In this document: one piece after another, positions 3,395-8,417 of the stretch | Numbering within the stretch: the stretch's first letter is position 1 | Layout: every line of letters starts with the position of its first letter | Source of the DNA: Cognaticolwellia sp. | GTDB taxonomy: Bacteria; Myxococcota_A; UBA796; CAJQPC01 | Direction: 5' to 3' | DNA length: 40,451 nucleotides | NCBI GenBank assembly: GCA_047621545.1 | Contig: JBLHMA010000003.1 | Location: 1-40,451 of the forward strand | Program-made: the position numbers and the translations under genes | The notes under the pieces: model-generated | What the model was told of the DNA's origin: nothing | Database searches by the model: none | The model's input: the letters and a program-made list of their open reading frames with translations, nothing else

Positions 3395-3871
3395 TCAGCC
3401 CTTCCCGCCCTGAACCTCGATGGTGCCTTCGTTCCCGTCGTAATCCTTGATGACGAAGCGGAAGCGCCAGTCGGTCGCGGACGAGCAGGTCAGTCCGTAG
3501 GATGCGCCCGGAAAGCTTCCCGTACAGGTTCCGCCCTCGGGGTCGCAGGCAACTACACCAGCTTGGTCCACCATGTTGCCGTCGCGCAGCCACTCGATGT
3601 GGTGCTGGTCGTCAACGTCTTCCTCGCTGAACAGATTGCGTGGGACATCCTCGGTCCCTTGCGGGTCATCAAACTTCACTTGGAAGTTCCAGAGGTCCAC
3701 GGTGCCTTCCCCATCAGGGTGCTCCAAGCACAGGGCGCTGGGATCGCTGAGGGTTGGGGACTGTCCGTCGTCCACAACCTCTTCACCCGTGTCGCTGTCT
3801 ACGACCTCGTCGTCGCCCTTGCAGGCGGTCAAGGACAGGGCTCCAAGCAGAATGCAGAGGTGAATGCGCAT
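3395..3871 (-). CDS. Acidic, Cys-containing lipoprotein of unknown function
   Basis: ATG at 3871 after GGAGA. Signal peptide MRIHLCILLGALSLTA-C with lipobox. Confidence 0.75.
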   Translation of the reverse strand: MRIHLCILLGALSLTACKGDDEVVDSDTGEEVVDDGQSPTLSDPSALCLEHPDGEGTVDLWNFQVKFDDPQGTEDVPRNLFSEEDVDDQHHIEWLRDGNMVDQAGVVACDPEGGTCTGSFPGASYGLTCSSATDWRFRFVIKDYDGNEGTIEVQGGKG

Positions 3872-3959
3872 TGCGTCTCCTAATTCGGAGTGCAGCTTAC
3901 CCCATCTTGAGGCAGGGGAGAAGGCATGGCTTGGCGTTGCAAGTCGATAGCCCCCGCAG

Positions 3960-3991
3960 TGTATATTCAAATGTACATATGTAAATATACA
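3960..3991. promoter_or_regulatory. AT-rich palindromic site, candidate enhancer for a sigma-54 activator
   Basis: Inverted repeat TGTATATT (3960-67) / AATATACA (3984-91) enclosing the palindrome TACATATGTA (3974-83), about 170-200 bp upstream of the predicted +1 at 4159. Confidence 0.4.
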
Positions 3992-4131
3992 TGCACACTA
4001 TGTTGTCAATAAGTAAAAACAGGGACTTAAGATAGTAGTCCGCCAATAATCAGCTGGTATTGTGGACAGAGTACCAAAACTGAGTTCCCAGCTATACACT
4101 TCTAAGTGGCTGAAATCAGGTAGTTCAAAAG

Positions 4132-4148
4132 TTGGCACGGTCAATGCA
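4132..4148 (+). promoter_or_regulatory. Sigma-54 (-24/-12) promoter
   Basis: TTGGCACGGTCAATGCA versus consensus YTGGCACGRNNNTTGCW (one mismatch), with exact GG-N10-GC spacing. IHF-like AATCAGgtagTTC at 4114-4126. Confidence 0.75.
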
Positions 4149-4158
4149 TATGTATTCT

Positions 4159-5670
4159 CCGACACCCGGTTCGCTGGGGTCGGCCGAGAGAAACGCTCGA
4201 ATACGTTCTTTGACGTTGACATTGCTGATTGTAGACGACCTGCTGCACTGCTCCTGCCGGAGCGACCGAGAAATCGGATGTGCAGCGCTTCTGTACGCCC
4301 TCACTTGATGGGGTAGCGGAACAGAGGGACAGGGCGCTTGGGATACCTGGTAATCACCGGGAAGAACGAGGAGCCAGTCGAGCGGAGCGCAGAACCAATT
4401 CGTTGGGAAAGCAAGCTGGCTTAGGACCACCCCTCGGGGCGGAAACCACGGCGCAATCAGTGTCCAAAAGCCCATGGAAGAATCGATCTGAAGGTACCTG
4501 GAAACGGGCGCTGGAGGAAACGGACTCTCCCAGAGGAGTAAAAGCCCTGAAGCTGAGGCGCAGTTCTTTCGAGAATTGCGAGCGTTGACCGTCCGCGGTC
4601 AGCGGAAAAAACAGCAAGAGGGAACGGTAGCTGCGGAGACGTGGTTGCAGCTTCTGGAGAGGGAAAGTCTTTGAAGGGTCATGCGCTACGAGGAGCACTC
4701 CCACACCGTTTTCGGACGGACTAAGAGCGAGCAAAACGGAAGCGAACCTTATGACCGGCAGCAGGATGCAACAAGCCTGCAGCTCAGATGCGGAGAAAAG
4801 CGTCGAGGAGCAGAGAAAGCTCAGGACGTACCAAGTTCACTCTGGCAAGAGTTGAAACAACAGCATGAAGAGACTTTGCGATGGCATTTATTTGCTGGAG
4901 CAGAGGATGAGCGAGTGGAGACACAAGCTCGGGGAACTGATGGCGACGAGGCCAGAAGCTCATTCAACCCAAAGCATGCTGGAGAGGACGCATCGCGAAG
5001 CAAGAGCAATCTTGAGTCGCAGAGAGTCGATGAATTGGATTCAGAGAACAAGGTGGCTGCGCAGCTTGCAAGAGTTGAGGCGCACCCTGGAGAAGAATCA
5101 CAGAATTCGGCACTGACGAGTATGTCGGTGGAGAGGCGGAAAAGCCCTGGAGAGAAGGAGACGGCGAAGCAGCCCGGCAGGTGAGGCTTCATAGAGAAAT
5201 TGAGACGGACAGCGGACTGCTTGCAGCCCGATGAAACCGAGCAAGGACTTGCTGGCTCAGGTACGAGAAGGAGTCTCTGAAGGAGGCGCCAAAGGACAAT
5301 AGGCGGCATCGTCGCAAGACGAAGCAGGCAGTGTGTGAGAAACCTTGAAGGTCCCATCGAAACAGCACGCTCAAACGGCGGAGCCGGTGAAGGCCAAGAA
5401 GGGACGCGAGAAAGGCCAACGACTCGCAGCACACGGTCAGTCAATCAGCAGCAATGTTGGTTTGCCACCTGAAGGTTCAGGCAACCCCACGAGAGGCGAG
5501 CAGAGGCAACTCTGAGAGCTTTAAGTACCCGAATTCTCTGACAGGAACTCCCACGGGCTGGGTGTCACCCTCCATTCCCTTGCGGGGGAAGACGAGGAAC
5601 TCTACAGATGCGAAAGCGAATGTAGAAAAAGAAGAGCCCCGAAGCCGGAAACGGCCTCGGGGCTTTTCTG
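4159..5670 (+). ncRNA. Candidate ~1.5-kb highly structured non-coding RNA of unrecognised family
   Basis: No credible ORF. Sigma-54 promoter at the 5' end and terminator at the 3' end. Many tetraloop hairpins (UUCG, UCCG, UGCG, GAAA, GCAA), G-U pairs consistent with the + strand, and long-range pairing 4216-4246 with 5426-5460. Confidence 0.62.
5631..5670 (+). terminator. Intrinsic terminator closing the candidate RNA
   Basis: GAAGAGCCCCGA-A-GCCG-GAAA-CGGC-C-TCGGGGCTTTTC hairpin ending in TTTTCT, with an A-run upstream. Confidence 0.7.
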
Positions 5671-5705
5671 CGTCTGCAGTTTTTGCTTGGCGGATCGGTT
5701 CCGGT

Positions 5706-5804
5706 GGGACAGTCAAGCCGCGCTGGGGACAGTCAAGCCGCGCTGGGGACAGTCAAGCCGCGCTGGGGACAGTCAAGCCGCGCTGGGGACAGTCAAGCCG
5801 CGCT
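5706..5804. repeat. 20-bp tandem repeat GGGACAGTCAAGCCGCGCTG x5
   Basis: Units at 5706, 5726, 5746, 5766 and 5786 (last one lacks the final base). Confidence 0.95.
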
Positions 5805-6010
5805 ACGACAGTCGAGGCAAGCTCGGTACGGCAGTCGATTCAAGCCCCATACGGCAATCGAGGCAAGCTCGCTGCACAAGCCCGGTGCGGCAGTCGGGTC
5901 AAGCCCGATACGGCAGTCGGGTCAAGCCCGATACGGCTGTCGGGTCAAGCCCGATACGGCAGTCGGGTCAAGCCCGATACGGCTGTCGATCCAAGGCCGC
6001 TGTGGCAGTC
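5805..6010. repeat. 23-bp tandem repeat CGGCWGTCGGGTCAAGCCCGATA, 4 near-perfect copies plus degenerate flanks
   Basis: Units at 5888, 5911, 5934 and 5957, each with an internal TCGGG-TCAAG-CCCGA hairpin. Degenerate copies on both sides. Confidence 0.9.
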
Positions 6011-6122
6011 AAGTCTCGCTGCGTTAGTCGAAGCCAAGATCTCCAAGCCAGCGCAGCTGGACGAGTCGGGCGGCAAGGCGAAGGCCTTGCATAGATGCCG
6101 CAGCTAAATGCGAAGCACCAAG

Positions 6123-6257
6123 GGCCGCTCAGCTCAAGAGGCCGCTCAGCTCAAGAGGCCGCTCAGCTCAAGAGGCCGCTCAGCTCAAGAGGCCGCTCAG
6201 CTCAAGAGGCCGCTCAGCTCAAGAGGCCGCTCAGCTCACGAAGGCCGGTCAGCTCAC
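6123..6257. repeat. 17-bp tandem repeat GGCCGCTCAGCTCAAGA x~7-8
   Basis: Units at 6123, 6140, 6157, 6174, 6191, 6208 and 6225, plus a variant at 6243 overlapping the E1 stop codon. Confidence 0.95.
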
Positions 6258-8417
6258 AAAGAAGCGGGGTGGGACCCAGCTCCAGGACTTGGTGCTGCCA
6301 GCGACCTTGATCTTCATGACCTGCCCCGCGGCTGCGACGATGTCGTCCTTGGTCAGGACCGTCGCAGCCTCCAGCTTGAGGGACTGAGCGATGCCTGGGA
6401 TGTTCTTCTGGCCCAGCGCCAGGCTCGGCAGTCCGGGGAAGCGCTCTACGAGCTGGCCCTGGATGCTGCGCACGAAACCAGCAAATGAGCGGTCCTCGGC
6501 AGCGACCAGCAAGCGGCCGGTCTTCTCGACGCTCTCGGTGATCAGGTCTAGATCTGGCGGGACCAAGGTGCGCAGGTCGATGACCTCGACCGAGAGACCC
6601 TGCTTCTCCAGCTCTTCGGCAGCAGCGATGCTGGTCCACACGGCGCGACCCCAGCTGACCAGAGTTACGTCCTGTCCTTCCTTCCGAATCACACCCTTCC
6701 CGAAGGGAACTCTGACGTTGCGGGGCAGGTCGGGGATCTCGCCACGCATGATGCGCTTCTTGAGCTTGGTGATGCCGTCGGTGTCCGTTGGCTCGCCGGG
6801 AAAGGCGGGGCCCAGGGTCTGGCGGTACATCCACTTGGGCTCGAGCATGATGACGGGCCCGTCATACTCGGATGCGGCCATGATCAGGCCGTAGACATCC
6901 CAGGAGGTGCTCGGCATGGCGATGACCAAACCAGGGATGGGCGTGAAGTAGCCGTCCAGGGACATGGAGTGGTAGACCGCGCCGCCGCCAAAGGGGTCCG
7001 TGGGCATGCGCAGGATCATGCGGCAGGTGCTGTTGCCGTTGCTGGTCCAGTACAGGTTGCCCAGGTGAACCAACCAGTGGAAGGCGTTCAGGCTGTAGTC
7101 GCCGAACTGAATCTCAGGCAGGGCGTGTACCCCTTCGTGCAGGCCGGCGCCCATGCTGCAGCCCACAATGAGGGGCTCATTCAGGGGCGCGTCGGTGACC
7201 CGGTCTGGGTACTTGTTCTTCAGGCCGGCGGTGGCCTGCATCACGCCGCCCAGCTTGCCGACGTCCTGACCCAGGATCATGCCGCCCTTGGTCTCCAGGA
7301 TGTGGTCCAGAGCGGAGCGGATTGCGCCGCCGTAGCTGACGTTGGTGGTGCCAGGCTGGGCAGCGGGCTCCTGAACATCTGGAAATGGTGCGTAGATGTT
7401 CTCCATGACGGAGTCATCGGGGGGATCCGGCTCAGCGCGCACTTCGTCGAAGATGGCCTTGACCTCCTCGTCTTGGCGACCCATCACGTTGCCCAGCTCA
7501 TGATGGGCAAAGAAGTCGCGGCCCTGGCCTTCGACGCGGCGCATGATGTCCTGCTCTTCGAGCACGCCGCGCTTCACAAGCTCGGCGCCGAAGCTGATCA
7601 GGGGGTCGTCTTGGCCCAGGTCGAAGGTCATGTCGGCGGCGGAGCTGTGGCCGTTGAAGCGGGGCAGGTTGACCACGTGCATGAACGCAGGCTTCTGCTG
7701 CTCCCGTACGTACTTGGCGCAGGCCAAGGTGGTCTCGTATGTGTCGAAGAAGTCGCTGCCGTCGCAGGTGAAGAACTTCACCCCGAATCCTTCTGCGTAC
7801 TTCTCGAAGCTCTTGATTCCGCGACCCTCTTCGGGGGTCGTGGAGATGGCCACTTCGTTGTCGGTGATCATCACGATCGTTGGGAGCTGCCAGACGCTGA
7901 TGGCGTTCATCGTGTCGTGCAGGTCGCCCTCCGCCGAGGTGCCGTCGCCGATGATACCCAGGGACATGCAGTCCTTGCGTCCCTGGCTGCGGTTGCCCAA
8001 TGCCCAGCCTGCGGCCTTGCCCAGCTGCATGCCCACGGGGGACTGCACGGGCAGGATGCCGTAGTCGCGGATGTCCAGGTGGTAGACCATCTGGCGACCG
8101 CGGGACATGGGGTCTGTGTCCTTGGAGAACTGCTGGCGCAGCATGTTCCGAGTGAAATCCTTGTTGCCGTGCAGGGTCAGCCACATGCTCACCAGGGCGC
8201 CTGATCGGTAGTGAGGAACCACGGCGAACTGATCGAGCTTGGCGACCTTGGAGATCGCCAGGGCGGTGGCAGTGCCGTGCACTTCCTCGCCTGGACCCCA
8301 GATGGCGAACTTGACCTCGCCCCGGCTGGCCAATCGCACGATGTGCTCTTCGGTAGAACGGGATCGAACTCCGATCTCATAGGCCAGGCGCAGATCGTCA
8401 GCGGTCAGCTCGGACAT
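6249..8417 (-). CDS. 2-oxoacid (probably branched-chain) dehydrogenase E1, fused alpha+beta subunits
   Basis: ThDP-binding GDGTSAEGD...N motif, GHSSAD-like loop, beta-subunit motifs GQDVG, DAPLNE, EIQFGDY and EVIDLRTLVP. Confidence 0.9.
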   Translation of the reverse strand: MSELTADDLRLAYEIGVRSRSTEEHIVRLASRGEVKFAIWGPGEEVHGTATALAISKVAKLDQFAVVPHYRSGALVSMWLTLHGNKDFTRNMLRQQFSKDTDPMSRGRQMVYHLDIRDYGILPVQSPVGMQLGKAAGWALGNRSQGRKDCMSLGIIGDGTSAEGDLHDTMNAISVWQLPTIVMITDNEVAISTTPEEGRGIKSFEKYAEGFGVKFFTCDGSDFFDTYETTLACAKYVREQQKPAFMHVVNLPRFNGHSSAADMTFDLGQDDPLISFGAELVKRGVLEEQDIMRRVEGQGRDFFAHHELGNVMGRQDEEVKAIFDEVRAEPDPPDDSVMENIYAPFPDVQEPAAQPGTTNVSYGGAIRSALDHILETKGGMILGQDVGKLGGVMQATAGLKNKYPDRVTDAPLNEPLIVGCSMGAGLHEGVHALPEIQFGDYSLNAFHWLVHLGNLYWTSNGNSTCRMILRMPTDPFGGGAVYHSMSLDGYFTPIPGLVIAMPSTSWDVYGLIMAASEYDGPVIMLEPKWMYRQTLGPAFPGEPTDTDGITKLKKRIMRGEIPDLPRNVRVPFGKGVIRKEGQDVTLVSWGRAVWTSIAAAEELEKQGLSVEVIDLRTLVPPDLDLITESVEKTGRLLVAAEDRSFAGFVRSIQGQLVERFPGLPSLALGQKNIPGIAQSLKLEAATVLTKDDIVAAAGQVMKIKVAGSTKSWSWVPPRFFVS

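Follow-up and report, generated by a model that had tools for sequence, protein, structure and literature searches.

INTRODUCTION

CrcZ of Pseudomonas is a sigma-54-dependent RNA of about 400 nucleotides (nt) that contains repeated A-rich motifs and acts as a sponge for Hfq/Crc, and Pxr, a developmental regulator of Myxococcus, is a small RNA of about 100 nt with three stem-loops. The larger RNAs OLE, GOLLD and ROOL are about 0.6–0.8 kb long. Here we describe a noncoding RNA gene of about 1,510 nt that occupies positions 4159–5668 of the + strand in a 40,451-nt stretch of DNA (the window) from contig JBLHMA010000003.1 of the Cognaticolwellia sp. assembly GCA_047621545.1. Apart from ribosomal RNA (rRNA), very few bacterial RNAs of such size are known to have an architecture conserved on the tertiary scale. 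We consider it likely, with a probability of roughly 0.8, that the locus is a stand-alone gene for a large structured noncoding RNA that founds a new family among Myxococcota which are uncultured and for the most part marine.

The 5′ part of this RNA resembles the leader of an rRNA operon in that a hairpin is followed by a boxA element with the same core, UCUUUGA, as in rrn leaders from the same order. A second likeness is a long untranslated transcript in which the 5′ leader and a 3′-end segment pair with each other, a concept described in PMC10250234. The same paper describes boxA as necessary and sufficient for formation of the rRNA antitermination complex, and discusses a proposal that this complex holds the leader for pairing with the trailer. 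Unlike rRNA operons, the gene described here has a sigma-54 promoter rather than a growth-rate-controlled sigma-70 rrn promoter, and the body of the RNA matches no rRNA model. The pairing partner of the 3′ end precedes boxA, whereas boxC of Escherichia coli lies downstream, and the end helix has nine pairs plus a weaker extension, compared with the more than 17 base pairs (bp) reported as critical for 16S rRNA.

OLE, GOLLD and ROOL, which form RNA-only homo-oligomers according to PMC12286853, share other properties with this RNA: very large size, many covarying helices, abundant hairpins capped by GNRA or UUCG loops, a patchy and lineage-restricted distribution, and a function that is not established. 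In contrast to them, the RNA reported here is about 1.0–1.9 kb long, occurs in another host phylum, has a sigma-54 promoter and a boxA, and does not match their Rfam models. Like CrcZ and CrcY, it is the product of a stand-alone noncoding RNA gene that is predicted to depend on sigma-54 and ends in an intrinsic terminator, but it is far larger than CrcZ, tightly folded and devoid of the A-rich motif AANAANAA. With Pxr it has in common the phylum and a sigma-54 promoter preceding a noncoding RNA. The likeness to CsrB/RsmZ consists of multiple copies in several genomes, a purine-rich composition and a modest enrichment of GGA; here, however, GGA does not lie in conserved hairpin loops, and CsrA was not found in any of five genomes. 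In biogenesis the rRNA leader with its leader–trailer helix comes nearest to this RNA, in kind OLE, GOLLD and ROOL, and in promoter logic CrcZ and Pxr; it belongs to none of these groups.

RESULTS

A conserved sigma-54 promoter precedes the RNA

By sequence inspection, TTGGCACGGTCAATGCA at 4132–4148 is a near-consensus sigma-54 promoter on the + strand. Its core, TGGCACGGTCAATGCA (4133–4148), comprises a −24 element, TGGCACG, and a −12 element, TGCA, with the GG and GC ten bases apart, and departs from TGGCAC-N5-TTGCW solely by an A in place of the first T of TTGC. This site is the single exact match to TGGCAC-N6-TGCW in the whole window. For TGGCACG-N5-TGCW, one match was found where 0.09 were expected; when one mismatch was tolerated, the seven matches in the window were at chance level (7.76 expected). 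Taken alone the promoter site is suggestive, and it is conservation that makes it significant.

Copies of the RNA were located independently of the promoter using a covariance model, R1, derived from an internal block at 4733–4843. Flanking DNA was available for 37 copies, and the 32 with at least 1,300 nt upstream or with a composite match were counted. The composite signature was defined as TGGCAC-N5/6-YGC followed on the same strand, 45–170 nt further on, by [CTG]TTTGAC, which represents the boxA-like element. It was present upstream of 28 of the 32 copies and was found neither on the opposite strand of the same regions nor in 37,096 nt of downstream control sequence. The −24/−12 element reported in a first-pass annotation of this DNA is thus kept upstream of homologous regions.

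Counting twelve bases past the C of the −12 GC gives a predicted transcription start at 4159 (± 3). The leftmost RNA contigs from metatranscriptomes (see below) start at 4161, 4172 and 4183; together with the end of an adapter-joined fragment at 4174, these contig ends provide a weak hint on the start. The genome of the window encodes RpoN, for which PF04552 gave matches of 94 and 71.5 bits at two contig ends; the rpoN gene is split over the contig ends G000:C159 and G000:C285. The same genome contains 26 matches to PF00158, the domain of enhancer-binding proteins, at least 17 of them strong (17 above 170 bits). Initiation by sigma-54 requires an enhancer-binding protein, so by analogy with sigma-54 systems in general the transcription of this RNA would depend on a signal. 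These data strongly support recognition of TGGCACG-N4-ATGCA by sigma-54 RNA polymerase, with initiation at about 4159. The first-pass annotation had proposed such a promoter firing into a noncoding and signal-regulated transcript from near 4159; contigs of four studies that begin at 4161–4183, with none on 3400–4148, agree with a start there, and together with the conservation of the promoter they support this interpretation. The promoter, the 5′ hairpin, an AT-rich palindrome and a site resembling that of IHF were all located where the annotation had placed them, which confirms its observation.

The transcript is noncoding and present in environmental RNA libraries

The promoter points into a gap of about 2.4 kb (3872 to 6248) between two minus-strand genes, one ending at 3871 and the other starting at 6249. 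The + strand is purine-rich from 4160 to about 5630, where its GC content is about 0.55 compared to about 0.63 in the flanks; across members of the family the composition is G 32–41%, A 17–29%, C 23–33% and U 10–16%. The extent of the gene given above is based on RNA contigs, conservation, structure and this U-poor composition. Stop codons occur in all three frames of the gap, none of seven open reading frames (ORFs) tested in the gap on either strand belongs to a Pfam family, and a comparison of 16 homologues revealed no ORF with a conserved position. The absence of a gene behind the promoter, as first annotated, was therefore borne out.

We considered whether the region might code for protein, as a gene that has decayed or is of an unusual kind, or might be an mRNA leader. 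ORFs of 100–170 codons are present on both strands, and the antisense strand, which contains little A, has few stop codons as a result. However, the longest ORFs shift place and frame even among three copies that are 89–90% identical, and natural variants in the RNA libraries include 1-nt insertions or deletions at 4303, 4310, 4443, 4852, 5020 and 5482. It is base-pair covariation rather than codon periodicity that accounts for the conservation, and the unit closes with a conserved terminator, beyond which lies a convergent gene. A coding function or a leader is hardly credible in view of these results.

Twenty metatranscriptome runs from ten studies of marine sediment and marine water hold 22–51% of the sampled words of 4100–5700. 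Contigs of four of these runs, each from a different study, were mapped onto 3400–6600. At least three of these runs covered each bin from 4149 to 5646, with contigs spanning 4161–5605, whereas 3400–4148 and 5647–6600, including the flanking genes, had no contig cover in any of the four. The silent flanks serve as a control against DNA carry-over. Neither these flanks nor the unevenness of depth in run X1 allow expression to be ranked. The longest contig, from run X4, measures 1,437 nt and spans 4172–5605. Right ends of contigs at 5532, 5553, 5554 and 5605 do not define the 3′ end. An intrinsic terminator is predicted at 5635–5669 (+ strand), consisting of a 13-pair GC-rich hairpin (5635–5664) followed by TTTTCT, and hairpins occur at the equivalent position in other members. 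The block 4742–4784 was also found in other contigs with unlike flanks, which we take to be the RNAs of relatives. The presence of the RNA in environmental RNA libraries from which the flanking genes are absent is strongly supported by these data.

The RNA folds into three domains with paired ends

A consensus structure was derived with RNAalifold from 16 full-length members. The model contains 145 pairs in 29 helices. Of its 2,240 cells, 89.1% were paired, compared with 75.6% in shuffled controls (a level reached in none of 500) and 38–42% in slid controls, and 93 of the 145 pairs had changes on both sides, as opposed to 55 in shuffled and 30–43 in slid controls. Consensus pairs contained 199 G·U and 64 A·C cells, an excess indicating that the + strand is the RNA. 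The sequence CTTCGG was enriched (26 occurrences, 6.8 ± 2.6 expected), as were GGAAAC and GGCAAC, which points to many tetraloop-capped hairpins. A length above 500 nt (about 1,510), 29 helices, a majority of pairs with compensatory changes and the lack of a conserved ORF are the properties by which large ornate RNAs, a class based on kind rather than homology, are recognised.

Two hairpins form the 5′ end. Hairpin H1 (4159–4183, + strand), CCGAC-A-CCCGG-TTCG-CTGGG-GTCGG, has a predicted energy of −15.8 kcal/mol in the first 34 nt and occupies a position like that of boxB; a comparable tetraloop-capped 5′ hairpin forms in no fewer than 13 of the 16 members. H2 (4184–4200, + strand), CCGAGAG-AAA-CGCUCGG, contains the helix 4184–4189:4195–4200, with 82% of cells paired and two double-change pairs.

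The two ends of the RNA are predicted to meet in a terminal helix, P1, in which GACACCCGG at 4161–4169 pairs with CTGGGTGTC at 5558–5566. P1 comprises nine pairs, with 96.5% of cells paired and compensatory changes in five pairs, and it joins bases +3 to +11 to the 3′ end of the RNA just before the terminator region. The 3′ strand lies inside a conserved GGRTGYCAHC motif, which directly precedes a GC-rich hairpin in 14 of 16 copies, in most of these with a T-rich tail after the hairpin. Across genera P1 covaries in at least six sequence versions, in which GACACCCGG is matched by CYGGGTGTC, GACATCCG by CGGATGTC, GGCACCCG by CGGGTGCC, GGCACCGG by CCGGTGCC, GACGCCGG by CCGGCGTC and GTCACCCG by CGGGTGAC.

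The body consists of three large domains on the + strand, each closed by the same type of 3×3 internal-loop module, CCCC-ANG-purine helix / pyrimidine helix-GRA-GGGG. Domain I (4470–4679) is closed by module 1, GCCC-AUG-GAAGA / UCUUU-GAA-GGGU, through helices 4470–4473:4676–4679 and 4477–4481:4668–4672; it also contains the 11-bp helix 4525–4536:4651–4661 with eight double-change pairs. Domain II (4747–5136) is closed by module 2, CCUU-AUG-ACCGG / CCGGU-GGA-GAGG, through helices 4747–4750:5133–5136 and 4754–4759:5124–5129. Module 3 closes domain III (5144–5546) through helices 5144–5147:5543–5546 and 5151–5155:5535–5539, and a fourth module (5273–5278:5492–5497) lies inside this domain. The best-conserved core, block D (4733–4843, + strand), is the source of model R1 and contains two hairpins with conserved loops. 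It has 14 predicted pairs, 11 of them with compensatory double changes, and 98% of its cells are paired, compared with 78% in shuffled controls (reached in none of 500) and 30–41% in slid controls. Among relatives, inserted hairpins give lengths between 953 nt and about 1,900 nt; the minimal 953-nt version, L098 of genome G050, still has boxA and block D along with the end helix and all three closing modules, and would suit structural work and delimitation of the core. From these data we conclude that the body is built of three large domains closed by one kind of module and that its ends are brought together.

The covariation also bears on the possibility that the transcript is a precursor cut into several small RNAs, with boxA and the end-to-end helix serving processing as in rRNA operons. 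The layout is like that of an rrn leader with a leader–trailer helix, as outlined in PMC10250234, and uneven depth in run X1 together with several short contigs would fit such cleavage. The single 1,437-nt contig over 4172–5605 stands on the other side, although contigs cannot show processing either way. Covarying helices span 200–400 nt, and P1 spans 1.4 kb, which argues for selection on an intact fold. P1, with nine pairs and a weaker seven-pair extension, is moreover short for an RNase III site. We regard a processed precursor as quite unlikely.

A boxA-like element follows the 5′ hairpins

Past H1 and H2, at +47 to +58, lies a boxA-like element, GTTCTTTGACGT (4205–4216, + strand), which is a candidate NusB/NusE loading site of the type used in rrn antitermination. 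This arrangement is conserved, and TCTTTGACGT is invariant in all 16 aligned members; some members read GGTCTTTGACGT at the boxA position. As the genome of the window has no assembled 16S rRNA gene, rrn leaders were compared in genomes from the same order. In the 16S leaders of three such genomes, GGTCTTTGAAAT occurs right after a hairpin in four of five leaders. NusB was present in all five genomes searched. By analogy with rrn leaders, the element may load Nus factors.

The RNA is widespread in one order of Myxococcota

In a DNA search of 41 related genomes, the region was found in ten, counting the window's own. Identity was 89–90% over about 1.6 kb in two genomes of the same genus; a third genome had two copies with collinear blocks of 68–83%, and further genera shared shorter blocks. 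The parts follow a fixed order in the alignment: a conserved upstream block comes first, then AAAGTTGGCACG-N5-TGCA, 12 bases and the two hairpins; after the invariant TCTTTGACGT comes a body low in U that contains conserved blocks, followed by GGRTGYCAHC and a GC-rich hairpin whose tail is rich in T. One genome for each of 185,579 species was searched with a pattern based on the 5′ part, which yielded 20 loci. Seventeen of these were the RNA element, all in metagenome-assembled genomes that are mostly titled Myxococcota, Deltaproteobacteria or Proteobacteria, four of them bearing enterobacterial names; the other three were chance matches in other phyla without a purine-rich body.

Model R1 detected the RNA in 75 of 151 genomes of the order, representing six of seven families and 38 of 67 genera, mostly with E < 1e-10. 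There were one to three copies per genome, some in tandem. Same-strand copies lay 1.6–3.6 kb apart in G098:C1 (2186438/2188343), G113:C416 (2394/3974) and G031:C29 (353/3949). In an even sample of the phylum, 20 of 151 genomes were positive, nine of them outside the order. Nine block-D loci outside the order were examined, seven of which had at least 2,100 nt upstream; none could be matched to the full architecture. At L114 (G206) and L108–L110 (G231, G272 and G281), block D lies in purine-rich stretches of about 400–900 nt, some of them behind sigma-54-like sites. The 1.5-kb RNA may thus be an expanded branch of a wider class of smaller RNAs.

Two observations concern individual assemblies. 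That of G023 contains four copies (L029, L032, L038 and L040) whose 5′ ends are almost the same in sequence, and three of the four copies sit where a contig ends; it is likely that the RNA gene acts as an assembly-breaking repeat and that copy numbers in draft genomes are underestimated. In a copy in G008:C55 (L008), GC-rich, coding-like sequence stands in place of the 5′ part, and promoter, hairpins and boxA are missing; this copy is either truncated or a misassembly.

Copy numbers of one to four, copies at contig ends in one assembly, a neighbourhood that is not conserved and the odd tandem-repeat arrays adjoining the RNA in the window would be expected of an RNA that, like GOLLD and HEARO, belongs to a mobile element or prophage and spreads by horizontal transfer. 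Against this, no cluster of flanking ORFs occurred in more than four genomes among 21 loci, the ORFs being unannotated and mobile-element genes not specifically sought, and the clusters that do exist reflect synteny among close relatives. Similarity also tracks relatedness (89–90% within the genus, blocks of 68–83% elsewhere), and a flanking dehydrogenase gene is syntenic among close relatives. A mobile origin appears very unlikely.

The RNA matches no known family

Searches with the 4,227 models of Rfam 15, which include rRNA, RNase P, transfer-messenger RNA, group II introns, OLE, GOLLD, ROOL, CrcZ and CsrB, gave no match at the gathering score in the window or in nine homologous loci. At E values up to 10, the region 3850–6300 produced just three chance-level matches, all to eukaryotic families; Pxr is thereby set apart from this RNA as well, if it is included in release 15. 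The leader of an rRNA operon was tried as an identity for the element and rejected, as no rRNA lies downstream at any locus. No paper on this RNA was found in the literature; the main texts of RNA-discovery papers were without the searched terms, and their supplements could list the RNA.

A further explanation is that the RNA is a protein sponge comparable to CrcZ (Hfq/Crc), CsrB/RsmZ (CsrA) or 6S RNA, in which many purine-rich sites would titrate a global regulator whenever the sigma-54 activator is active. CrcZ is sigma-54-dependent, and the RNA described here is purine-rich, with 859 GGA in 16 members as opposed to 735 ± 17 in shuffled sequences, an excess of 17%. Its four internal-loop modules could be repeated binding sites, and several copies are present in some genomes. 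However, AANAANAA does not occur in this RNA and is found three times in the 16 members, where 6.6 ± 2.7 are expected. Neither ARN repeats nor Shine-Dalgarno-like GGAGG are enriched, CsrA (PF02599) was found in none of five genomes, one of them closed, and the GGA of the best-conserved hairpin is an unconserved part of its stem. The sponges known so far are short and have a loose structure; this RNA, in contrast, folds into a closed, multi-domain structure of 29 covarying helices. We consider a sponge unlikely. The analogy to the small regulators CrcZ and Pxr drawn in the first-pass annotation was too modest for a 1.5-kb multi-domain RNA that has no CrcZ-type A-rich motifs and no Rfam family.

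Sequence motifs upstream of the promoter

The AT-rich palindrome upstream of the promoter (arms 3960–3972 and 3979–3991, 13 nt each, 85% complementary) had been put forward as a candidate enhancer, or upstream activating sequence. It is present, but it is poorly kept even in two genomes of the same genus (G001 and G003), and alignment of the upstream regions showed a different upstream motif in other genera; an enhancer role for the palindrome is not supported. A sigma-70-like match, TTTACA-16-TACACT, lies inside the palindrome (3958–3985, minus strand) and faces the gene at 3395–3871, so the palindrome may belong to this divergent minus-strand gene rather than to the sigma-54 promoter. In G011, G015, G018 and G009, TTCCCAA and GGATCYCAA are found about 20 bp apart, roughly 100–130 bp upstream of the −24 element; these motifs are candidates for the true activator site.

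The IHF-like site, AATCAGGTAGTTC (4114–4126), has one mismatch to the consensus WATCARNNNNTTR. The match is no better than chance, as 17 one-mismatch matches were found in the window and 13.9 were expected. The site is enclosed in a block, TAAGTG..CTGAAATCA(C/G), that is conserved across several genera of the family; in the window this block reads TAAGTGG-CTGAAATCAG (4103–4126, + strand), and it is kept in 10 of 11 aligned copies, with 4103–4119 conserved within the family.

Sequences downstream of the RNA gene

Directly past the terminator, at 5706–6256, are three tandem arrays, perfect or almost so, of a 20-nt unit (4.9 copies, 100% matches), a 23-nt unit (4.9 copies) and a 17-nt unit (8.1 copies). 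The arrays had no RNA contig cover. Genomes of the same genus align to about 5685 and resume from about 6253, with a gap across the arrays. The hairpin at 5635–5664 has a T-run on both sides and reads as a terminator on the minus strand too, where it may also end the convergent dehydrogenase operon. The first gene on that side (6249–8417, minus strand) encodes a 722-amino-acid fusion of the E1 alpha and beta parts of a 2-oxoacid dehydrogenase (E1_dh, Transket_pyr and Transketolase_C); its synteny with the RNA gene is confined to close relatives.

DISCUSSION

Several results weigh against a stand-alone, sigma-54-dependent gene for a large structured RNA. An exact match to the promoter motif arises by chance in about 9 of 100 shuffled windows, and the composite signature is missing in 4 of the 32 copies (G051, G060, G206 and G070b); one of these, G070b, has the variant TGGCGC...TCGCA and is a 29th copy with a related element. 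No conserved enhancer site was found in the upstream alignment, none of the 26 enhancer-binding domain matches falls within the window, and no gene for such a protein lies near the RNA. Among the block-D loci outside the order, a sigma-54-like site is present in three of seven, at the start of a shorter purine-rich stretch, and none of the seven has a boxA. Assembled contigs show presence and rough extent rather than true ends, strand or level, and the comparison covered RNA runs alone. The structure was derived from the alignment that was also used for counting, so that the gap to the slid controls is inflated. P1 and the local 5′ hairpin H1, which itself covaries, are mutually exclusive; the two are probably successive states. 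Finally, ORF clustering of 21 loci in 17 genomes revealed no conserved neighbour gene that would bear directly on function.

A stand-alone gene for a large structured RNA nevertheless remains our preferred interpretation, and the following sequence of events would be consistent with its parts. A signal would act through an enhancer-binding ATPase to trigger sigma-54-dependent initiation at about 4159. The boxA would then load NusB/NusE, which would allow the untranslated 1.5-kb transcript to escape Rho. The 5′ end may be held until its 3′ partner emerges, as proposed for rRNA leader–trailer helices, and the paired ends together with the terminator hairpin could protect the RNA. Such end protection would fit the prominence of the RNA in RNA libraries.

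As to function, one guess, possible rather than probable, is that the RNA serves as a scaffold for a large particle, in which it would assemble with itself and/or with multiple copies of a single protein; we prefer this to base-pairing regulation or a sponge of a known kind. It is our first choice because the closing module recurs, the genes occur in multiple copies, biogenesis resembles that of rRNA and the fold is ornate. Titration of a protein ranks behind it, ahead of a processed precursor. A broader proposal, which we put forward tentatively and at a little under even odds, is that the element represents an undescribed class of giant structured RNA with three modular domains, expressed well above the flanking genes in marine Myxococcota by a hitherto unreported hybrid of signal-gated sigma-54 promoter, rRNA-type boxA antitermination and end-to-end closing helix, and forming the core of a large RNA-only or RNA–protein particle.

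We rate the element as a new class among the very large bacterial RNAs, one that appears to be controlled by sigma-54 and made much as rRNA is. OLE, GOLLD and ROOL were recently shown to build unexpected RNA-only assemblies (PMC12286853), and the new family is larger. It is found in half of the sampled genomes of an order of Myxococcota and is visible in the metatranscriptomes of ten studies. Closed genomes carrying the RNA exist (G070 with three copies and G098 with two), and the sigma-54 promoter offers a genetic handle via rpoN and activator proteins. The combination of boxA and a closing helix, in turn, provides a way to ask whether Nus-assisted folding serves RNAs other than rRNA.

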